Below, piece by piece: positions 1 through 10,652 of a stretch of DNA of 10,663 nt. Where the stretch lies: IMG/VR virus record IMGVR_UViG_2802429253_000003; one strand, given 5' to 3'. The notes under the pieces are model-generated. The model was not told the origin of the DNA. It saw only the letters and a list, made by a program, of their open reading frames with translations, and ran no database searches. A program made the translations under genes and the position numbers. Origin of the DNA: a virus. Lineage: Duplodnaviria; Heunggongvirae; Uroviricota; Caudoviricetes. The stretch's first letter is position 1. Each line of letters begins with the position of its first letter.

Positions 1-818
1 CTATTAATATAGTATACTATTCCTCCGTCAGCCATCAATTGACATGGAATACATTCTACATTAAGACGATAATTTATTTCTGGCTATTACTTCTTGTTTC
101 TTCATGTTTTTTTATTAAAAATTATTCAAAAATATGGTTTTGCATTAGCTTTATCAGCATTGCTCTAGCATGTGATAACTTAATATTATTGCATTTTATG
201 GATTCACGTTATCCTATATGGTATTGGGCCAAAGGGCTTGAACTAGCATCCAGCTTATATATCATATGCACTCTAATGTATTTTATATTTTTGAAATTAA
301 AATATTCAGATTATCTGGCTTCACACGATTTTTTAACTAACACTTATAATAGAGGTGGTTTTTTAAATGCCTTCAAGACAATATTAAAAAATAACAATAA
401 TAATTCCATTTGTGTATTAATGCTCGACATTGATCACTTCAAGAAGATAAATGACCAGCATGGACATCACACTGGAGATATAGTAATAAGCACAGTAACA
501 AAAATTATTGCAAAGACAATCAGGAACAAAGATTTATTCGGCCGACTTGGAGGGGAAGAATTCGCCATTGTATTCAATGATCTTTCATTTTCTCAGATCT
601 CAGCAATCAGCGAAAGAATAAGAAGGAATGTTGAAGTGAAAACACAAAATCTTACTGTTAAATATGGGGTTGAAAGAGTCACTATCAGCATAGGTGGGTT
701 CATCACTCTTTCAAATAAACTCATGCCTTCAGAAATCTTGGCTCAAGCAGATGAATCGCTATATGAAGCCAAAAGAACTGGCAGAAACAAGGTAATCATA
801 CATAGCGAGATATCATAG
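1..818 (+). CDS. Membrane-anchored GGDEF-domain diguanylate cyclase, probably 5'-partial
   Basis: The ORF track starts it at a TTG at nt 39, but the frame has no stop between nt 1 and 39 and no Shine-Dalgarno precedes the TTG, so the gene most likely starts upstream of the window. The N-terminal ~90 aa is hydrophobic (about three predicted TM helices). The C-terminal ~165 aa has GGDEF hallmarks: GGEEF active-site motif (nt 549-563), an RxxD I-site (RNKD) five residues upstream, and an LDIDHFKKIND metal-binding stretch. Very AT-rich, Asn/Lys/Ile-rich codon usage, unlike the adjacent phage genes. Confidence 0.85.
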   Translation, partial: INIVYYSSVSHQLTWNTFYIKTIIYFWLLLLVSSCFFIKNYSKIWFCISFISIALACDNLILLHFMDSRYPIWYWAKGLELASSLYIICTLMYFIFLKLKYSDYLASHDFLTNTYNRGGFLNAFKTILKNNNNNSICVLMLDIDHFKKINDQHGHHTGDIVISTVTKIIAKTIRNKDLFGRLGGEEFAIVFNDLSFSQISAISERIRRNVEVKTQNLTVKYGVERVTISIGGFITLSNKLMPSEILAQADESLYEAKRTGRNKVIIHSEIS

Positions 819-862
819 CTATTTAGTGGCAACAGACGATATTATACTTACTGATCATTAAA

Positions 863-894
863 CCGCAGCATATTACCAGTATAATTTGCTGCGG
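863..894. terminator. Perfect 8-bp inverted repeat (ccgcagca / tgctgcgg) with a 16-nt AT-rich loop between two convergent coding regions; possible weak terminator
   Basis: Seen directly in sequence. It lies 45 nt after the stop of the GGDEF gene and 19 nt after the stop of the tfa-like remnant. On the minus strand it is followed by TTTAAT. The loop is long and the U-tract poor, so termination is uncertain. Confidence 0.3.
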
Positions 895-912
895 AATATA
901 ATTAACTAGTTT

Positions 913-1041
913 TCAATTAGCTGCAGGAATGAGAGGCCACTCAGTATCCGGTGCAGTTGATGTATCAACACGGTTCAGCAACACCCGATACTTCTTCCAG
1001 GCTTCCAGCAACGAGGTTTCGCCCTCCGTTGCATATACAGC
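913..1041 (-). pseudogene. tfa: 3'-terminal remnant of a tail fibre assembly gene (Tfa C-terminal domain only, no start codon)
   Basis: The minus-strand frame translates to [42 protein letters not shown] then stop (TGA at 913-915). This matches the conserved C-terminus of lambda-type Tfa proteins as I remember them (..[29 protein letters not shown]..). It is bounded upstream by an in-frame stop at 1042-1044 and has no start codon or RBS. Confidence 0.6.
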
Positions 1042-1050
1042 TCACCTTTT

Positions 1051-1374
1051 TCACCCGCGATTAACCAACAGCCAGACCAGCAGACACGCCACCACCGGCA
1101 CAGCAAAATCCATCAGGCTTGCCACATCCCATGCACGTGGATCAAAACCGCCCCACCACGGCATGTTAATCCGCTTGCCATGCCCGAACATTTCAATCCA
1201 GCGATATTCTGCCTGGGTGTGTTCCCGCGCAATGAAGAATGTACAACCGGCTATCGCCCCGTAAGCCCAGTTTCCGGTAAAAAGACCAACCAGTACCTGC
1301 GCAGCCACAGCACAAAGCGCATGAAGAAAAGGTGTTATATCCATTTTCATCCTACCCAATAAAACGGGGCGCAT
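1051..1374 (-). CDS. Small hypothetical inner-membrane protein (about 97-107 aa, two predicted TM helices, Trp-rich connecting loop)
   Basis: ORF with two hydrophobic helices (ITPFLHALCAVAAQVLVGLF and FAVPVVACLLVWLLV). It starts 11 nt after the stop of the upstream 346-aa gene, preceded by an AAGGG Shine-Dalgarno-like element. Alternative internal starts exist at codons 9 and 11. GC near 55 percent. The plus-strand ORFs overlapping it have implausible composition. No family recognised. Confidence 0.6.
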   Translation of the reverse strand: MRPVLLGRMKMDITPFLHALCAVAAQVLVGLFTGNWAYGAIAGCTFFIAREHTQAEYRWIEMFGHGKRINMPWWGGFDPRAWDVASLMDFAVPVVACLLVWLLVNRG

Positions 1375-1385
1375 AGCCCTTAATA

Positions 1386-2426
1386 TTATTTAGACGCAAG
1401 CGTCGCCTCAATTGCAGATAATCTTTGCCTTAATTCTGCGTTTTCTTCTTCCAGTACTGTTATTCTGTCGTCTGACTCTCTGGCTACCTGAACAAGCAAG
1501 CCAGTAACACCAGAATAATCTACTGTGTAATAACGTTCACCTTCTTCACCTTCCGATCCGCTTGCACCGTCCTGATATTTCATTGCGGAACCTACAACTT
1601 CTGGGATTGCTTCCAGAGCTTCCTGTGCAATGACACCTGCATAGGGCATACCGTTTTCTTTAAGCGTGTATGTATAGCCGTTCATTTTACGGATGCGGTC
1701 GGTTGCATTATCGATCACCTGAATGTTGTCTTTCAGATCCCGGTCAGAATGCTGGTTAAATGCGGTGGCATGACATGCACCATTAACGCTTAACATATAG
1801 GTGTTATCGGTATTTTTCTGCGCATAGAACATATACGCGCCACCATCAGCACCAACTTCATATACAACCGGACGGGTAGAGTTACCCCACAAACTAGTAG
1901 TAGCGCCAGAATGAGCGGTCCCCTGTGTGTTTAATGTCATGGTTGACCCATGATTGGCATATTTGATTTGTAATGTGTCTGTGCAGTCAAACTTAATAAG
2001 CGCGTTACTTCCCCGCACACCATACGACATGAGACAGTTCCCCATCTTAAGGTAACCATCACTGCCTGGAAAAATTAATGTTCCGCCGTAAAGATCGCTA
2101 AAATCCCAAAAGATACCTTTTGTTCCATTGTGTGTGACAATCCTTGTCATTGTATCTTTTGTACCGTCAATATTTTTTCTGGTGTACATCTCACTATAAG
2201 CGTTTTCGGTTTCTCCTGTCTTATTTGACAAGTGAATCTTACCGCTAAATATAGTTCCAGTGGTCGGCAATGTCTTTTGATCATAGATTACATTGCAATA
2301 ACTATTCCATGTTGTTTTATTGTCTACATATGATTTTGTTGCGTAGCTCCCTTGATCGTTTTTTAATTTGCTAACGTCGGATTTTAGCGTTTTGATATCA
2401 TCAGGAATTACTGTCGATGTAGCCAT
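1386..2426 (-). CDS. Tail fibre / fibre-tip protein with C-terminal peptidase-S74-type intramolecular chaperone (autoproteolytic) domain
   Basis: The C-terminal ~120 aa (HSDRDLKDNIQVIDNATDRIRKMNGYTYTLKENG...GVIAQEALEAIPEVV...YTVDYSGVTGLLVQVARE...LEEENAELRQRLSAIEATL) has the hallmarks of the endosialidase-type chaperone domain: an S-D-x-x-x-K Ser/Lys dyad context (Ser227 codon at nt 1746-1748, Lys232) and a terminal coiled-coil. The N-terminal ~225 aa is Gly/Thr/Asn-rich and beta-like, consistent with a receptor-binding domain. Strong RBS (GAGGAAGG) 9 nt spacing from the upstream ORF; GC lower than the core phage genes. Confidence 0.8.
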   Translation of the reverse strand: MATSTVIPDDIKTLKSDVSKLKNDQGSYATKSYVDNKTTWNSYCNVIYDQKTLPTTGTIFSGKIHLSNKTGETENAYSEMYTRKNIDGTKDTMTRIVTHNGTKGIFWDFSDLYGGTLIFPGSDGYLKMGNCLMSYGVRGSNALIKFDCTDTLQIKYANHGSTMTLNTQGTAHSGATTSLWGNSTRPVVYEVGADGGAYMFYAQKNTDNTYMLSVNGACHATAFNQHSDRDLKDNIQVIDNATDRIRKMNGYTYTLKENGMPYAGVIAQEALEAIPEVVGSAMKYQDGASGSEGEEGERYYTVDYSGVTGLLVQVARESDDRITVLEEENAELRQRLSAIEATLASK

Positions 2427-2435
2427 TTTCCTTCC

Positions 2436-2717
2436 TCACATCCAGCCACGAAGTTGATGCTCAACAGCAACCGCGTATTCATCGAATAATGACGATATTT
2501 GCGAATCATTAATGATGCGCACGTTTACAAAATATCCGTCCTCCTTAACACATACCGGCTCGCCATCTTCAGTAAGTTCTCCGGTTTCTTTGTACACATT
2601 ACCTATCACGTCAATAAGAATATCATCCTGCATCGACTCGTCATCATAATAGCCAATACTCTCCATAAAGGCCGAAAAGTCGGCCCTGTCGGCAAATTTG
2701 AGTGTTAAATCTTTCAT
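2436..2717 (-). CDS. Small, highly acidic hypothetical protein (93 aa) translationally coupled to stf
   Basis: Its ATG (2715-2717) overlaps the stf TAA stop (2717-2719) as TAATG. By my count it has about 21 Asp/Glu against 7 Lys/Arg. It sits where tfa is found in lambda but has no Tfa-like motifs. No family recognised. Confidence 0.55.
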   Translation of the reverse strand: MKDLTLKFADRADFSAFMESIGYYDDESMQDDILIDVIGNVYKETGELTEDGEPVCVKEDGYFVNVRIINDSQISSLFDEYAVAVEHQLRGWM

Positions 2718-5092
2718 TAGATTGACTCCCCCATCTGAGCATCAGTCAATGCCTTGTGCCATATTCTGAAATTCCTGACATGACCAAATAAATGACGTAA
2801 CCCGGCTGTAGTCTGGCCTCCAATACGGATAATTGCGGTGTTCTGAATACAGGACCATGTGGTTTTTGTTTCGCTGGATATATGCCCGTTACTTACTGAG
2901 CACGTAGACTGCTCTGACTTTACACGCATCCCCATAACCATTTTTTCAAGCGATGCGTTTTCGTTTACCCGTCTGTTAGCTCCTCCAATATCGCAATAAG
3001 GAAATCCGTCATAATCTGTTGAACGACCGAAGCCAAGAATAATAGCCGCTCCGGTTTGATGACCGCCGGTATCAAAAACACGCGGTGCTGCATTTGGCGT
3101 TTTATACCAGTTCTTATGTACCTCACAAAGAACTGTAAAAGGAAGATTATAAAGGTTATTCTTGATTGGGACTGTCACCATATCGCTTGCGCGAGTGCTT
3201 GCAGTTATATCAGTTACAATAAATGACGAAGCACTTGATCCACCTTCCACTTGTGGAGTTGCGATATCCAGATAGTCTCCAGATGCTGTGCCTGAACCTT
3301 TTACTGGAGCATATTGAACCATCGCACCAATCATGCTCTCTGTATCTAGTGCATTAATTGTAGCCTGATAGAAAATCCAACCAGTAGCCTCATCTTTTAC
3401 AGCTTTTGCAATAATACGATTTGCTGCACCACCAGTCTTATCAATTACAAGTGTTGATAAATTGAGGTAAGCATCTCCCAAAAAAGTGTAAGTAGAACCA
3501 TCATGATGTTCAAATCTTAAACGACACCTTATATTTTCAACATCACTTCTGACACGGCATGAAATGGTCACATATTTTTCATCACCTGTGACATCAAATC
3601 CTTTACTGCCAGAAACCGTTACGATATTAATCGCACTTGTCTGATCAATAAGAGTATCTTTTACAGTAAATCTCCCATAAGTAAAATTAAAAGAATCCGT
3701 GGATATTTCTGTGAGTTCCAGATTGCCTGACTTATTCCATTTAGATGGATTTGTTGAATTAAGCAGAAGATTAGTTCTTTGCCCCTCAATAAGCAGGCCA
3801 TCACGTTCAAATCGCGGCTCGTCAATGGCAGCCTCTGTCAGTACACCAGATTTATTAATATAGGTTGCTTTCGATGCGCGTTTAAACTTTACAATCTTGT
3901 CGCCAGGCATTGTTATTTCATCGTCGCCAATAACAATTTTTTTATATGATGGCGAAAAGCCCGTAATCATATCCAGTGAATCGTTAAACGGTATCCACAC
4001 ATCAGGAAGCGGCTGTAAGACATATTTATACGGCTCTGCTGCCTGGCTTGCGTACTCCCTGGCTGCGTCTTCGCTTGCTTTAGCTGCCGTCTGGCTTGCT
4101 GCCGATGCTTTCGCTGAGTTATCCGCCGCAGTCTCGCTCGCCTTTGCGTTGGTTTCACTGGTTTTTGCAGCTTTTTGACTGTTGGCTGATGCAGTGGCAG
4201 AAGAAGCCGCCGCACTTGCAGAACTGGCTGCGGCACTCTCGCTTTCAGCTGCTGCATCCTGACTGCTTTTCGCCGCAGTTTCACTGGCTTTGGCATTCGT
4301 TTCGCTGGTCTTCGCTGCCGTCTGGCTGGACTTTGCGTTAGTTTCACTCGTCTTCGCAGCTTTCTGGTTGTTAGCCGCAGCAGTTGCTGATCCAGCTGCT
4401 GAAGTCGCAGAACCGGCTGCCGCGCTCTCGCTTTGGGCTGCTGCAACCTGGCTGTTTTTTGCCGCAGTTTCACTGGCTTTAGCATTCGTTTCGCTGGTCT
4501 TCGCTGCCGTCTGGCTGGACTTTGCGTTGGTTTCGCTCGTCTTTGCGGCTGTCTCGCTATTTTTCGCGTTGGTTTCTGATTTTTTGGCTGCTGTCGCGGA
4601 GTTTGCTGATGCAGTCTGTGAGGCCGCTGCCGCCTGTGCACTATTAGCTGCATTCGTTTCTGAGGTTTTCGCCGCGTTCTTCGATGATGCCGCTGCAGTT
4701 TCTGATTTCTTTGCCGCCGCTGCGCTCTGAGAGGCGGCTTCAGCGTTGCGTGCCGCTTCTTCCACCATTTCCTCAAAACGACGCAATGCCTCCGGCATGA
4801 CATCATCTTCCGTCATGGCACCGAGAAAATCATTCAGCGTACCTGGTCTGGAACCTTCATAGACGGTAATGGTCCCGGCATGTGAAGGCGGAAAACCTTC
4901 AACCAGCAGGATGACGCTGTACTGGCCATACTCAACATCCATGCTGTAACGCCCGGCTTCATCCGGATTTTCAGAGGCCACCGTGTTCACCAGTACCGTG
5001 GTGCTGTTACGTTTTGCTTTCAGCTGGATTGTGCAGTTCTGTACCGGTTTTCCTGTGCCGTCTTTCAGTACACCTGAAATCTTTACTGCCAT
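2717..5092 (-). CDS. stf: Side tail fibre protein Stf: lambda-like N-terminal domain, Ala/Ser/Thr-rich repeat shaft, divergent distal domains ending in a putative LamG-like lectin fold
   Basis: N-terminus MAVKISGVLKDGTGKPVQNCTIQLKA... matches lambda Stf as remembered. The ORF track begins at GTG 5098, but the ATG at 5092 gives the lambda-like MAVK start with GGGGTGA upstream. The central region is repeats of the type AAKTSETNAKSSQTAAKTSETNAKASETAAK. The last ~110 aa end in ...GHVRNFRIWHKALTDAQM, resembling the C-terminal signature of LamG/concanavalin-like jellyroll domains. Confidence 0.9.
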   Translation of the reverse strand: MAVKISGVLKDGTGKPVQNCTIQLKAKRNSTTVLVNTVASENPDEAGRYSMDVEYGQYSVILLVEGFPPSHAGTITVYEGSRPGTLNDFLGAMTEDDVMPEALRRFEEMVEEAARNAEAASQSAAAAKKSETAAASSKNAAKTSETNAANSAQAAAASQTASANSATAAKKSETNAKNSETAAKTSETNAKSSQTAAKTSETNAKASETAAKNSQVAAAQSESAAAGSATSAAGSATAAANNQKAAKTSETNAKSSQTAAKTSETNAKASETAAKSSQDAAAESESAAASSASAAASSATASANSQKAAKTSETNAKASETAADNSAKASAASQTAAKASEDAAREYASQAAEPYKYVLQPLPDVWIPFNDSLDMITGFSPSYKKIVIGDDEITMPGDKIVKFKRASKATYINKSGVLTEAAIDEPRFERDGLLIEGQRTNLLLNSTNPSKWNKSGNLELTEISTDSFNFTYGRFTVKDTLIDQTSAINIVTVSGSKGFDVTGDEKYVTISCRVRSDVENIRCRLRFEHHDGSTYTFLGDAYLNLSTLVIDKTGGAANRIIAKAVKDEATGWIFYQATINALDTESMIGAMVQYAPVKGSGTASGDYLDIATPQVEGGSSASSFIVTDITASTRASDMVTVPIKNNLYNLPFTVLCEVHKNWYKTPNAAPRVFDTGGHQTGAAIILGFGRSTDYDGFPYCDIGGANRRVNENASLEKMVMGMRVKSEQSTCSVSNGHISSETKTTWSCIQNTAIIRIGGQTTAGLRHLFGHVRNFRIWHKALTDAQMGESI
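4083..4740. repeat. In-frame tandem direct repeats inside stf (189-bp period, at least two full copies, within a broader degenerate short-unit repeat region)
   Basis: Near-identical DNA at 4276-4340 and 4465-4530 (offset 189 nt, 63 codons), and again at about 4143 versus 4332. These encode the Ala/Ser/Thr-rich shaft repeats of Stf. Confidence 0.8.
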
Positions 5093-5103
5093 ATTCACCC
5101 CAC

Positions 5104-5130
5104 AAAAAAGCCCGCCTGAACCGGCGGGCT
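5104..5130 (-). terminator. Intrinsic terminator between lom and stf
   Basis: Minus strand reads AGCCCGCC-GGTTCA-GGCGGGCT followed by TTTTTT: an 8-bp GC-rich stem, 6-nt loop and U-tract. The U-tract runs directly into the stf ribosome-binding region (GTGGGGTGAATATG). Confidence 0.6.
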
Positions 5131-5156
5131 GTCATAACACTGTGTTACCTGGCTAA

Positions 5157-5756
5157 TCAGAACTTATAACCGACACCCACGATGAAACCGTCAGTGCGCC
5201 AGTCGCCACTGCCGGAGCCTTCATAAGCAATATCAATGGCCACGGATTCGGTCGGGTTAAACTGCACGCCAGCTCCCCACGCCAGAGACGTGTTGCTGTG
5301 GCGACCGTCATCACTTCCGGTCAGCACATCGTGCGTTTTCCCCTTGTTGTCAGTTACGCGAAGATAATCCCCGGAGAAAGTCGACACACGGCTGTAAGCC
5401 ACACCCGCCATCGCATACGCGCTGAACCATTCATTCACGCGCACAGACGGCCCCGCCATCACGCTGAACCAGCGGTTACGCACGGAATCTTCATGCCAGC
5501 GGGTATCGCTGTAATGGGTTTTTTGCTCATCTTTGGCATTGGCATAACTGAATGACGTCACCAGCCCCAGCGTGTCCGTAAATTCATAACGGTATTTCAC
5601 GTTAATGCCCTTCAGGTCATCACTGCCTGGCATATCAGTATGGGTCTGAAGATACCCGGCGCTTAGTGTGGACTGATGCTCTGCTGCGCTCGCTGGCGTA
5701 CCAGCGGCAACCAGCCAGACTACTGCGGACAGAATAACAGCACATAATTTACGCAT
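5157..5756 (-). CDS. lom: Lom outer-membrane protein (Ail/Lom/PagC/OmpX family beta-barrel)
   Basis: 199 aa with an N-terminal signal peptide ([24 protein letters not shown]) and the typical C-terminal ...[10 protein letters not shown]. Near-identical to lambda Lom as remembered. RBS GAGAGGT upstream of the ATG. Confidence 0.93.
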
Positions 5757-5823: not shown

Positions 5824-8800
5824 TCAGCTGATACTGATGCCTGCGGTGGCTTTCTTCATCACCACAACCAGCAAATCGCTGATACTTGCTGTGGGATACC
5901 AGTTATTTACCAGCCATGCTGACACCGAAAACTCCAGTGTCATGTGACCGTGACCGGCAGGCATATCAATAACGCCACTGTAAATCAGCGTATTATCCAG
6001 CGCGGTACGGTTATAAATTTCAGCACCGTTTTTCCGCACTATCAGACGGCATGAGGAGTAAATATCAGTATGCTCTCTCTCATGCTTAGCGCCACTGAAT
6101 GCCACCGCCGGAATAACAATTTGCCGGTCAAACGGCTGATCGTCATAAACCCTGACGGTAATGGTCCCTGATGGCCACCGCTCCGGTGCTCGGGAGTCAC
6201 GGGGGAAAGCTTTGCCCACTGTTTTAACGAGATCGCCTTCAATCTGGTTCGCGGACAGTTTTCCCAGAACCCGACAGTTCTCGTTAATCGTGACGTTGTT
6301 GAGCGTCCCGGAGTTCGCATTCACGTTACCGCTGATATCGGCATTTTTCGCCGTCAGCCGCCCGTCCGGCGTCAGGGAAAATGCAGGAGGATTACCGCCG
6401 CTGGTGATGGTCGGGGCCGTCAGACGCTTCAGGAACACGTCGTTCATGAATATCTGATCGCCCTGACCAACAAACATCGGCTTTGTGTTGCCATTCGCAG
6501 GATTAATCATCGCAATCCTGTCCGCCGCCAGCAGCACCTGACTCTGCATACCGTCAGGAGTATTCTCAATACCGGCACCAATACCCGCGATATAAAGGCG
6601 TCCGTCCTGCATCTGCTGCAGCTTCACAGCCCACATGCTGTTCAGGTTATTATTTGTATCAACCTGAACCTTCTGTATCTGCTGGATCGCTGCACTCTGG
6701 TCTTCCAGTTTCTTATTGACGGTCTGCGTGATTTCATTGCTGACACCCGTAATGGACGTCCTGATTTCAGCCAGGTCAGGCGCAAGCTGACCGTTATCAA
6801 TCTGCGTCCACAACTCCTGAGCCAGATGGGTTTTCCCTATCTCTCCTTTGAAAAAATTCAGATAGCCGGATGCATCATCACTCGGCTGGCCAACAGCCTC
6901 CACAAATGCCGATTTGCCAACGGTGTTCACACTGCGGATGTAAAAATAATAATCATGGCCCGGTTTGATATTGATACTGGCGGCTATCCAGTACAGCGCC
7001 GTGCCAAGATAGCGTGCTGTGGTTTCAACCTGCCTGATATCCGCAATCCGCTTTTCCGAGAACCAGAACTCAAACTGTACCGTCGGGTCATAAACCGCAA
7101 GATGCGGCGTGGCGGTTATCTGAAAATAGCCCGGAGTCAGCTCAATCTGTGACGGCGCTGCCGGTGCGGCAATCCGGAACGATACCGACGCCGGGTCTCC
7201 CTGCTGCCCCCAGGCATTTACTGCCCGGACTGTCAGCCTGTAGTTCCCCAGCGCCAGCTGCCTGAAGCGGTATGTTGTTTCCGTCGTCCGGGCCGTGCTG
7301 ACCAGCCGCTCACTGCCGTCGTCCGCTGTTACGGTCAGACGGAGCAGGAAGCTCACGCCCTTCACCACCTTCGGTGTGTCCCATCGCGCCAGCACCTGAT
7401 ATTCCCCGCTGTCTGCATTGACTTCTGCGGTCAGGTGCTGCACCGCGGGCGGCGTGACACCGTTCACCGTTCCGCTCTGGTCGCCGTCAAAGTGCGCCCC
7501 GTTATCCACGATGGCTTCTTTCTCCGGTACATGCTGCACGGCAGTGATGGCATACGTGCCGTCATCGTTCTCACGGATACTCACGCAGCGGAACAGGCGC
7601 TGGCGCAGCGTCGGCAGCTTCAGCCCCCACACGCTGTATTCTGCAACGCCGTCAGGAACACGACTCACTTTCACCTTCACGCCGTCGGTGACGGACTGAA
7701 CCTCCACGCTGACCGGATTACCACTTCCGTCAACCAGGCTTATCAGCGTGGTACCGGAGGATGGCAGCGTGATTTCACGGTCGAGCGTCAGCGTCCGGGT
7801 CTGGCTGTTCACCGCCAGCACGCGACCACCGGTGCTGATACCGGCATAGTCATCATCGCAGATTTCAATAACATCGCCCGGCACATGGCGAAGCCCTTCT
7901 GCGCCCACGCTGAAATCCACGGTCTGCGTCTCCAGCAGTTCCGTTTTAATCAGCCACAGCCCGGCGCGGTGTGCCTGCCCCCGGCTGGTACAGCCAAAGG
8001 CATCCATCTTCGTGACATTACGACCGTAACGGGCAATGGCCTGCGTATCTTCAACAAGCTCTGTCGCCGTCTCCCAGCCGTTATTCGGGTCAATCCAGTT
8101 CACCTCAACGGCATTATGGCGGTCCTTCAGGGCGCTGAAGCTGTAGCGGAACGGCGCGCCATCATCCGGCATCACCACATTACTGCGGTTATAGGTCCAC
8201 ACCTTATCCGACGGTCGGTCCTGCACGAACGTCAGCGTCTGCCCGTTCCATACCGGCATACAGCGCATCGCCGAGCAGAAATCGCTGAGAACATCCCACG
8301 CCTTACGCTGCGTGGTCAGGTAAGCGTTACAGGTGATGCGCGGCTCCGTGCCACCAAAGCCATCCGGCACCGACTGGTCGCAATTCTGGCCGATGACATA
8401 CAGCGCCCATTTATCCACATCCGCTGCACCAAGACGTTTCCCCATGCCGTAGCGCGGATGGGTCAGCATATCCCACAGACACCAGGCCATGTTGTTGCTG
8501 TATGCCGGTTTAAACGTTCCGTCCCAGATACCGCTGTATTGTCGCGTCTGCGGGTTATAGTTCGACGGCACCTGCAGAATGCGCCCGCGCAGATGATAAT
8601 TACGGCTCACCTGCTGGCTGCCGAACTGCTCCGAATCCACCTGCACGCCGACCAGTGCCGTGTTCGGGTAGCACTGTTTCACATCGATGATTTCGGTGTA
8701 TGACGACCAGAGCGTTTTGTTCTGCAGCTGGTCTGTGGTGCTGTCCGGCGTCATCCTGCGCATCCGGATATTAAACGGGCGCGGCGGCAGGTTACCCACC

Positions 8801-9303
8801 ACCACCGAGGCCAGATACTGCGAGGTGGTTTTGCCCTTAATGGTGATGTCTTTTTCCGTCACCCAGCCACCGTTACGTTGTATCTGAACCAGCAGGCGGA
8901 CTTCCGATGGATTCCTGTCCCCCTTTGAGGTGGTTTCCACCAGTGCCTGCACACCGAAGGTAAAACGCAGACGGTCGATGTTTGCCGACGTGATGGTCCG
9001 GGTGATCGGCGTGTCGTATTTCACTTCCGTACCCAGTACCGTCTCGGAACCTGATGATTCAAATCCCTCCGGCGGTGTCTGCTCCTGCTCACCTGCCCGG
9101 AACACCACCGTGACACCGGAGATGTTGGTATTCCCCTCACTGTCCAGCACCGGTGTACTGTTCAGCAACACGCTTTTTAATCCATCCCCCGGACCTTCAA
9201 TCGGCCCTTCGCTGATGGCATCGATCACACTCAGCAACTGCGTGGATTTCAGGTTGTCCTTCGCTTCGCGCGGGGTATGCCCCTTACTGCTGCCTTTACC
9301 CAT
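5824..9303 (-). CDS. J: Tail tip / host specificity protein J (central tail fibre)
   Basis: 1159 aa. The N-terminal ~800 aa ([38 protein letters not shown]...) is recognisably lambda J. GGAG Shine-Dalgarno about 9 nt upstream of the ATG. The C-terminal part appears more divergent from lambda J as I remember it. Confidence 0.95.
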
Positions 9304-9363: not shown

Positions 9364-10011
9364 TCATCGACCAATCACCACAACCTGACCACCATCCCCT
9401 TCGTCTGCCGTGCTGATCTCCTGAGATACCACGCGTGACCCCACGCGCATTTCACCGTACAGAACGGGCAGAACATTCCCCTGGGCAACCATGTTATCCA
9501 GTGAGGAGAAATACGTGTTCTGTTTGCCGTTATCCGTTGTCTGTGTGCGGGGAGTTCTGGCTTTCGGTGCCAGCATCTGCGCCACACCGCCCAGGATCAT
9601 ACTGGCCCCTACCGCATACATACCCGATACAGCCGCGACACCCAGCCAGCCCACAGGGTTCCACCATGCCACCGCAATCAGCGCAGCCCCCAGCACTGCC
9701 TGAAAAACACCGCCACTTTTGGCACCCGCCAGACGCGGTACGATGTGGATCACGGCACCATTTGCCAGCGGCTCATTAAGACGGGCAGATAATTCGTTTT
9801 CGCCTGCATCACGCCCGGCAATGCGCACCTGATACCAGCCCTCATTCAGTTTCTGACGAAACGCCGGGAGCTGCGTGGCCAGCGCCCGGATAGCTTCGGC
9901 TCCCGTTTTCACACGAAGGTCGATGCGGTGGCCAAATCGTTGCAAATCCCCGTAAAGGCAGATGCGTGCCATGCCCGGTGACGCCAGAGGGAGTGTGTGC
10001 GTCGCTGCCAT
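9364..10011 (-). CDS. I: Tail assembly protein I
   Basis: 215 aa. N-terminus MAATHTLPLASPGMARICLYGDLQRFG... and C-terminus ...VLPVLYGEMRVGSRVVSQEISTADEGDGGQVVVIGR match lambda gpI as remembered. The start lies inside the 3' end of K. Confidence 0.9.
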   Translation of the reverse strand: MAATHTLPLASPGMARICLYGDLQRFGHRIDLRVKTGAEAIRALATQLPAFRQKLNEGWYQVRIAGRDAGENELSARLNEPLANGAVIHIVPRLAGAKSGGVFQAVLGAALIAVAWWNPVGWLGVAAVSGMYAVGASMILGGVAQMLAPKARTPRTQTTDNGKQNTYFSSLDNMVAQGNVLPVLYGEMRVGSRVVSQEISTADEGDGGQVVVIGR

Positions 10012-10652
10012 TTGTCGGTATACCTCTCTCGTTTGCTCAGTTGTTCAGGAATATGGTGCAGCAGCTCGCCGTCGCCGCAGTAAATGGCGGCATGATTCGG
10101 CACCGATGAACCAAAGCAGCACAGCAGCACATCGCCCGGCTGCGCCTCTGTCAGTGCGGCACGGTAAAAACCAGTCGCCTCCATATTGTCAAGATAGAGA
10201 TTCTGGCCGTTACGCCACCAGTCATCCCCGCGATGAAAATCCGGCATCTCAATTCCCGCCAGATGGTAAGCGTCCCGGAACAGCGTGTAACAGTCCGTCA
10301 CCCCGTGCTCAAAGCGCCGCCCGGTGAGATGCGGCACACAGCGGAACTTATGAATCGCCCCCCGGCAGACCAGCCACCACGGCAAATCACTCTGCACCTG
10401 CAGCCGCCGGTCGGCCTCACTCAGCCAGGGCAGACCACCGGGATGACTGTGGACCAGCGCCACAATCTCACCCTGCATTTCTGCCTGCAGCCAGTCCTCC
10501 GGCGACATCCGGAAATAATCCTCCGGCTCACCGGAAATATTCACGCAGGGAAAATATCTTTCCCCCTCCGGCGTTCTCACCACGAAGCCGCACGACTCCG
10601 CTGGCGCACATCGCCGGGCGTGCGCCAGAATCGCTGATTCTGTCTCTGTCAT
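9909..10652 (-). CDS. K: Tail assembly protein K (MPN/JAMM domain plus NlpC/P60-like domain)
   Basis: 247 aa. JAMM motif HSHPGGLPWLSEAD (H-x-H-x7-S-x2-D) and a C-terminal NlpC/P60-like Cys/His context (GVTDCYTLF ... NHAAIY). It overlaps I by 103 nt in another frame, the same overlap length as I recall for lambda. Confidence 0.9.
   Translation of the reverse strand: MTETESAILAHARRCAPAESCGFVVRTPEGERYFPCVNISGEPEDYFRMSPEDWLQAEMQGEIVALVHSHPGGLPWLSEADRRLQVQSDLPWWLVCRGAIHKFRCVPHLTGRRFEHGVTDCYTLFRDAYHLAGIEMPDFHRGDDWWRNGQNLYLDNMEATGFYRAALTEAQPGDVLLCCFGSSVPNHAAIYCGDGELLHHIPEQLSKRERYTDKWQRRTHSLWRHRAWHASAFTGICNDLATASTFV

Follow-up and report, generated by a model that had tools for sequence, protein, structure and literature searches.

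The question that this locus raises is how a short stretch of DNA that reads like the end of a tail fiber assembly gene (tfa) came to lie behind a membrane-protein gene at the end of a prophage tail module, and whether it still has a function there. The whole stretch of DNA that was analyzed, hereafter the window, is 10,663 nucleotides long (IMG/VR virus record IMGVR_UViG_2802429253_000003). Based on open reading frames (ORFs), Pfam and PHROG, it is the tail end of a lambdoid prophage in which the tail genes are all found on the minus strand. Its features are:

1-818, plus strand: MASE4-GGDEF gene, which enters from the left edge and has its stop at 818; low GC (27-37%)
794-934: 141-nt stretch limited to the window and locus L161
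863-894, minus strand: hairpin after the remnant, by folding and comparison with intact tfa loci
913-1041, minus strand: tfa remnant, 42 sense codons and TGA at 913-915, by translation, Caudo_TAP and lambda tfa homology
934-1033, minus strand: conserved 100-nt core of the remnant, 85-97% identical to intact tfa genes and other remnants
1042-1046, minus strand: 5' junction of the remnant, with the breakpoint at 1044-1046
1051-1350 (ORF 1051-1374), minus strand: small membrane-protein gene; phrog_1443 (E 8.5e-59), function unassigned
1386-2426, minus strand: tail-fiber protein, 346 aa; PF13884 Peptidase_S74 (E 6.4e-14, residues 227-278) and phrog_4563 'tail fiber protein' (E 3e-208)
2436-2717, minus strand: 93-aa protein; phrog_1361
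2717-5098, minus strand: side tail fiber Stf, 793 aa, phage_tail_N domain
5157-5756, minus strand: lom
5824-9303, minus strand: J
9364-10011, minus strand: I
9909-10652, minus strand: K

The remnant is the 3' end of a tfa gene

On the minus strand, positions 913-1056 contain the TGA at 913-915, 42 sense codons (916-1041) and, in the same frame, TGA codons at 1042-1044 and 1051-1053, of which the latter is the stop of the membrane-protein ORF (1051-1374). That these stops lie in the frame of the membrane-protein ORF was noticed in the initial annotation of this DNA and is seen in the translation. The 42 codons had also been recognized there as the C-terminal end of Tfa, and the Pfam, PHROG, blastn, tblastn and Mu Tfa matches all agree with this assignment. 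The Pfam family Caudo_TAP (PF02413) matches with 54.9 bits (cut-off 22.1; E 1.3e-14) at profile positions 95-130 of 131, and four PHROG families of tail-fiber assembly or chaperone proteins match with E values of 1.8e-13 to 3.2e-10. The two comparisons with lambda that had been proposed gave 31 identical residues out of 36 (86%) by tblastn, at Tfa residues 156-191, and 95% nucleotide identity by blastn between lambda tfa (codons 156-188) and window positions 934-1033, with the edge of the lambda homology at 1033. As a whole, the remnant corresponds to lambda Tfa residues 156-194. It also matches residues 142-174 of Mu Tfa (PDB 5YVQ_B; E 4.9e-4). The closest intact allele (L237) differs at 4 of 99 nt, which results in one amino acid change, I185T. 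No NCBIfam or PADLOC match was found for the remnant or for the 93-aa protein.

Intact genes encode 194 aa, and what is found here is 42 codons only, without an ATG and without the N-terminal fiber-binding domain; judging from the sequence, Tfa chaperone activity without this domain would be implausible. The initial annotation had described the remnant as having no start codon, which is correct for ATG but not for other starts, since in-frame TTG and GTG codons are present and give a 32-aa TTG ORF at 913-1011. The remnant is truncated relative to its full-length homologues at a definable breakpoint (1044-1046), as a pseudogene would be. Positions 913-1046 are very probably a non-coding tfa relic, which keeps the last ~43 codons and the natural hairpin, and which is the right-hand scar of an old cassette replacement.

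On the other side of the remnant the similarity to other copies drops at 934. Intact tfa genes diverge there too, and a natural tfa-type 3' end and hairpin are kept, so that this break is the variable Tfa tail and not a second scar. The hairpin (863-894) is formed by CCGCAGCA..TGCTGCGG followed by UUUAAU (-20 kcal/mol, z -3.4), and hairpins with a CCGCAG..CTGCGG outer stem and a T-run are found behind many of the 80 intact tfa loci and behind lambda tfa. A simple terminator scan of the window did not flag the 863-894 hairpin. Based on the folding and on these loci, the transcript of the tail operon probably ends here.

The 5' junction and the replaced segment

Lambda homology reaches 1033, and the tfa-derived DNA then continues for about 11 nt more, to about 1044, with a 1-nt deletion near 1034. 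This continuation can be followed by comparison with locus L085, which has a tfa remnant of its own, and with intact alleles. GAGCTG (1038-1043) is common to the L085 remnant and the intact alleles. The L085 remnant has GAGCTGGAAATCGCAACG where the window has GAGCTGTATAT-GCAACG, and at this position L085 and the intact tfa alleles read GA(G/T)CTGGA(A/G)AT(C/T)GCAACG. The last tfa-derived bases, at 1042-1046, are the GTGAG of ..GGTGAGCTG.., which is out of frame; due to the 1-nt deletion, what looks like a stop at 1042-1044 is T-GAG from the former reading frame, shifted out of phase.

From the cassette side, the breakpoint can be located by relatives that have the membrane gene but not the tfa remnant. 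These diverge from the window at 1046 (L112 type, which shares TGAAAAAG with the window up to this position), at 1057 (L133) and at 1066 (L162 type). Since tfa homology extends to 1044 and cassette homology to 1046, the breakpoint lies at 1044-1046, inside the interval of about 1042-1055 that was first proposed.

It was also proposed that tfa was truncated when the upstream cassette was inserted. The truncation holds, but a replacement of the 3' part of stf and most of tfa describes the change better than a simple insertion does. By blastn, lambda homology resumes only at 4743-5284, which is the stf 5' region and the end of lom, and thus ~3.7 kb replaced the distal stf and the first ~150 tfa codons. 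The event was probably an old replacement in which the stf 3' part and these ~150 tfa codons were exchanged for a different host-range cassette. The incoming cassette would have brought a new Stf distal part, the 93-aa accessory protein, the 346-aa S74 fiber and the small membrane protein, whose gene is the last one of the replacing cassette.

In 43 of 45 related loci the membrane-gene stop is followed by a run of six A, and in the window and L161 by five. The extra A puts the membrane ORF and the remnant in different frames, so that the frame which they share in the window is an accident of this lineage. A read-through fusion with the membrane protein was rejected on this ground, the frame being common in only 2 of the 45 loci.

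Several smaller observations can be made around the junction. The last codons of the membrane gene form a hot spot of mosaicism. Joints are found at 1046, 1057 and 1066, L143 has an IS3-family element inserted there, and in L163 the stop TGA of this gene is changed to CGA. An out-of-frame ORF of 19 aa is located at 975-1034 on the minus strand; its ATG (1032-1034) was created at the junction, 7 nt after AAGGTGA. This ORF is present in most related loci with a length of 12-30 aa and is probably a by-product of conserved tfa nucleotides.

Spread and age of the junction

Phage 21, phage 2G7b and E. coli A33 all have exactly the joint AAAAAAGGTGAGCTGTATATGCAACGG, and the same joint is found in most of the 80 IMG/VR loci having sequence downstream of the membrane gene. 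Of 5426 complete E. coli genomes, 1733 cover at least 80% of a 121-nt query that spans the junction; T7Express, which derives from E. coli B, is one of them. An event found in so many genomes and in several phages is not specific to this prophage, and the comparison indicates that the joint is old and was inherited, not made here. In both A33 (AOY86_RS03835) and T7Express (HO400_RS14390) PGAP labels the fragment as 'tail fiber assembly protein, incomplete, missing N-terminus'. The remnant is thus already known as an ordinary, widespread and annotated pseudogene fragment at a type of boundary that is well known from mosaic phage genomes.

The membrane gene and the fiber cassette

PGAP places the start of the membrane gene at its second ATG (1344), and the phage 21 copy is annotated as 'putative membrane protein, 2 TMDs'. 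The protein gave no Pfam, NCBIfam or PADLOC match, and its involvement in superinfection exclusion is only a guess. The junction query, which includes the 3' end of this gene, is found in about one third of the complete E. coli genomes, and in every case this is where the fiber module ends.

The metagenomic contig L161 shares window positions 1-1361 at 98.4% identity, which covers the GGDEF gene, the tfa remnant and the membrane gene. The 5' part of stf is 89% identical between the two, and window positions 1361-3904 (distal Stf, the 93-aa gene and most of the 346-aa fiber gene) have no close counterpart in L161 (1799-3981). The membrane gene is therefore in closer linkage with the remnant than with the fiber genes. 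From the alignment, the difference between the window and L161 looks like a recent host-range cassette swap with its boundary just upstream of the membrane gene.

The module apparently has two fiber systems: Stf with the 93-aa protein, whose gene start overlaps the Stf stop by one base, and the separate 346-aa fiber. The 93-aa protein is possibly the chaperone of Stf itself. As is known from endosialidases and certain phage tail fibers, S74 domains act as intramolecular chaperones. In the 346-aa fiber the start of this domain is at ..NQHSDRDLKDNI, a sequence similar to the motif at which such chaperone domains cleave themselves, and the fiber would be predicted to fold without a separate Tfa. 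That it carries its own chaperone domain could account for the toleration of the loss of tfa. A lambda-type Tfa is lacking in the fiber set here. No complete tfa is found within the window; together with the putative chaperones of the cassette, this suggests that the remnant is not needed as a protein and is drifting.

The Stf shaft (4109-4561, minus strand) is rich in Ala, Ser and Thr and contains internal direct repeats with KTSETNAK.. units. Due to these repeats, blastn aligns different loci in several offset ways, and it is probably here that the length varies.

Decay in sister copies of the remnant

By comparing remnants with intact genes it can be asked whether the coding sequence is still maintained. 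In 80 intact lambda-type tfa genes a core of 15 residues is essentially invariant, the sole change being A166V in two loci, and W167 is kept in all 80. Among 44 remnants we found L164R (11 loci), W167R (four), W167L (three), V172M (four) and D184H (one), as well as I185T in the window and L161. Replacements at positions that are invariant in the 80 intact genes occur in 23 of the 44 remnant loci and in 0 of the 80 intact ones, a test that is partly circular in the way an invariant position is defined. Disrupted copies are also found: the L107-109 copy, which is 54% identical to lambda Tfa by tblastn, has an in-frame TAG; the L110 and L132 copies have a frameshift and a TAG; and the remnants of phage 21 and L163 have a second cut at 976, by the sitABCD cargo.

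The ratio of nonsynonymous to synonymous changes is 17:20 in the remnants and 12:17 in the intact genes (p 0.8). As there is no global difference, the signal of relaxed constraint comes from the specific radical changes and the disrupted copies. Only 4 of 99 nt in the window copy are unlike those of the best intact allele, and the two ratios are alike; thus most of the variation was inherited from working genes. Such a near-intact copy fits a recent exchange, and it also fits any constraint on DNA or RNA. Taken together, the sister copies suggest that the remnant is dead.

Exchange within the 100-nt core

Behind the one 5' junction at least nine different 3' tails are found among related loci (PALP, PTNPVRE, PTVPIIE, LIQP, PVIPEV, PAAPIG, PVQPE, PSQP and, in the window, PLIPAAN, each followed by the stop), and PALP, PTNPVRE and PTVPIIE are also found at the end of intact tfa genes. 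Since a repeated origin of the same joint is implausible, this diversity argues for crossovers inside the ~100-nt core after the junction was formed. Between L161 and the window, the remnant is identical at 138 of 138 positions, whereas the membrane gene is only 95.7% identical. Recombination of lambda with Rac and Qin through stf-tfa homology, with crossovers inside tfa, was shown experimentally (De Paepe et al., 2014; PMC3945230), and in lambda x Rac one third of the sequenced recombinants crossed over in the region of tfa with 95% identity (PMC3945230).

A mechanism that fits these data is that the core keeps recombining homologously with the tfa genes of co-resident prophages and of infecting lambdoid phages. 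Such ongoing exchange may be the reason for the high identity of the core to working tfa genes. It would also shuffle the content downstream, such as pin, sitABCD, a methyltransferase or, in the window, the GGDEF island. Indeed, the DNA beyond the remnant is pinR-ydfK-ynaM in A33 and T7Express, a SAM methyltransferase and a second tfa fragment in 2G7b, sitABCD in phage 21 and the GGDEF island in the window.

One may go further and propose that the tfa relic and its hairpin are kept as a portable right-hand homology arm, a 'linker' between modules, although we consider this step doubtful and rather improbable. If it were true, lambdoid phages and prophages could use this arm, along with the conserved 5' end of stf, to swap Tfa-independent fiber cassettes and downstream cargo. 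It would also account for one joint in a third of the E. coli genomes, a core with 85-97% identity and many 3' continuations.

The downstream flank

The 141 nt at 794-934 run from the last 8 GGDEF codons across the spacer and hairpin into the final 7 codons of the remnant, and it is in this stretch that the GGDEF island, with its low GC, meets the 3' end of tfa. This stretch has no match in complete E. coli genomes or phages, and its sole match is L161 (99.3%). Likewise, megablast and blastn searches with the left flank (1-940, 780-945 and 820-960) found nothing in complete E. coli genomes or phages. When the GGDEF protein was compared with the genome contigs, only relatives with at most 42% identity were found; by protein look-ups, the closest full-length relatives are 446-aa proteins of E. 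coli (90% identical) and E. albertii (79%).

The order at the K-12 Rac right end is stfR-tfaR-pinR-ynaE-ynaM-attR(ttcC)-uspF, and L085 has the same site. In L085 the flanks of GGDEF and of the tfa remnant are separated by ynaM-ynaE-pin. In L161 pin-ynaE-ynaM is absent and the GGDEF island abuts the hairpin of the tfa remnant through the 141 nt. The island itself spans 4410-6843 in L161. In L085 (7028-9435) it has a size of 2.4 kb, and 195 bp of the Rac right end are present on both sides of it as a direct repeat, which points to a second element at this attachment site. The GGDEF gene of E. albertii likewise lies beside a phage tfa, with a Lactamase_B gene between them that has a faint match to the anti-Pycsar protein Apyc1.

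Alternative explanations

The breakpoint by itself could also have been made in two steps: the cassette landed upstream of a complete tfa, and a separate, later deletion made the joint at 1044-1046. Independent truncations of tfa do occur; in L085, residues 147-191 are retained immediately behind an S74-type stf, phage 21 was cut again at 976, and K-12 DLP12 has tfaD and tfaX fragments. Moreover, the 3' end of the membrane gene is a hot spot, as the joints at 1046, 1057 and 1066 and the IS insertion indicate. However, no longer tfa was found behind the membrane gene in the 80 IMG/VR loci or in the phage and E. coli loci examined. In addition, the membrane gene of L162-type loci is followed immediately by the terminator that lies behind tfa, which is what outright replacement of tfa predicts, and we thus regard the two-step history as unlikely.

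Another hypothesis is that the fragment is expressed and functional, either as the 32-aa peptide from the TTG at 1011 or as an extension that read-through adds to the membrane protein. A Tfa oligomerization segment in free form could, for instance, interfere with the fiber assembly of competing phages. The TTG (1009-1011) is in frame and has a GGAGG 11 nt upstream, the remnant is in frame with the membrane ORF in the window, and what is left matches the C-terminal end of Mu Tfa (5YVQ_B 142-174). In the Mu Tfa structure paper, the C-terminal domain is reportedly the conserved one, which mediates assembly. Yet, read-through must cross two TGA codons, in a frame that only 2 of 45 loci share, and sister copies have stops, frameshifts and the W167R/L and L164R changes at residues that are invariant in intact genes. 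Phage 21 lacks the distal half, and the PADLOC search of the remnant gave no match. A working product is, in our view, very improbable. Even less credible is that the region encodes a small RNA of the Rfam family IS009 (RF02111), which cmscan reports at 956-1053 on the minus strand with 66.2 bits (E 1.4e-14). This score falls below the gathering threshold, which is 117; the 122 positions in the middle of the model are largely missing, and only the first 7 and the last ~70 positions align, in columns without base pairs. Full-length matches to IS009 lie inside intact coding sequence, with 220.9 bits in tfaR and 217.7 bits in lambda tfa, and thus the family amounts to part of the tfa coding region and the match of the remnant restates its tfa homology. 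The coordinates of these full-length matches are 5755-5953 in L253 (K-12 tfaR) and 3417-3615 in L002 (lambda tfa).

An invertible tail-fiber segment of the Mu G, P1 C or e14 P type was also considered and rejected, as there is no recombinase ORF in the window. No inverted repeats that bracket the fiber genes were found in the window. The remnant is co-directional with stf, and relatives do have pinR beside the remnant.

Comparison with known systems

The non-coding relic can be compared with the known Tfa proteins, lambda Tfa (orf-194, Caudo_TAP) and Mu Tfa/U. It matches the last ~36 residues of their C-terminal domain and is followed by a hairpin of the same kind. Unlike lambda tfa, it lacks the ATG and the first ~150 codons, which encode the N-terminal fiber-binding domain, and is preceded by two stops; unlike in intact tfa loci, a membrane-protein gene separates it from the fiber gene. 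The PGAP pseudogene of E. coli B, in a Rac-type prophage, and of A33 has the same 5' junction, membrane gene and core and is the same element. The window differs from it by one A fewer in the spacer, the PLIPAAN tail, I185T and the downstream DNA, which is the GGDEF island and not pinR-ydfK-ynaM.

In several other cases partial tfa genes are found, as in the window, at the boundary between a fiber module and variable cargo: TfaX and TfaD of K-12 DLP12, the second fragment of 2G7b and the 39-codon remnant of L085. The breakpoints are not those of the window, as TfaX is an internal fragment ending in ..SLLEA and the stop, TfaD has a foreign N-terminus and L085 starts from residue 147, and these are independent events. 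The arrangement also resembles the exchange of fiber modules in lambdoid, P2, Mu and P1 phages, where the stf 5' part on the left and the tfa 3' part on the right bracket the swapped host-range segment. In contrast to the lambda x Rac exchange, the right-hand homology arm in the window is a dead fragment and not a working gene.

No element or mechanism of a new type emerges from the tfa remnant, which may serve as a clean example of a dead gene end that is still a crossover site between phages. For annotation the fragment is useful, as it marks the end of the fiber module and the start of variable cargo in Rac-type and other lambdoid prophages. It also explains the recurrent sub-threshold matches to Rfam IS009, a family that in prophages flags tfa genes or their fragments.

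Two further loci have a parallel order. In 2G7b (L003 3900-5120) the tfa remnant is followed by the SAM methyltransferase, a second, frameshifted tfa fragment, a hydrolase, an omptin and an integrase, and in K-12 DLP12 (L255 3535-7634) tfaD is followed by ybcY (a methyltransferase pseudogene), tfaX, appY and ompT. In both, it looks as if cargo was trapped between a pair of tfa 3' ends.
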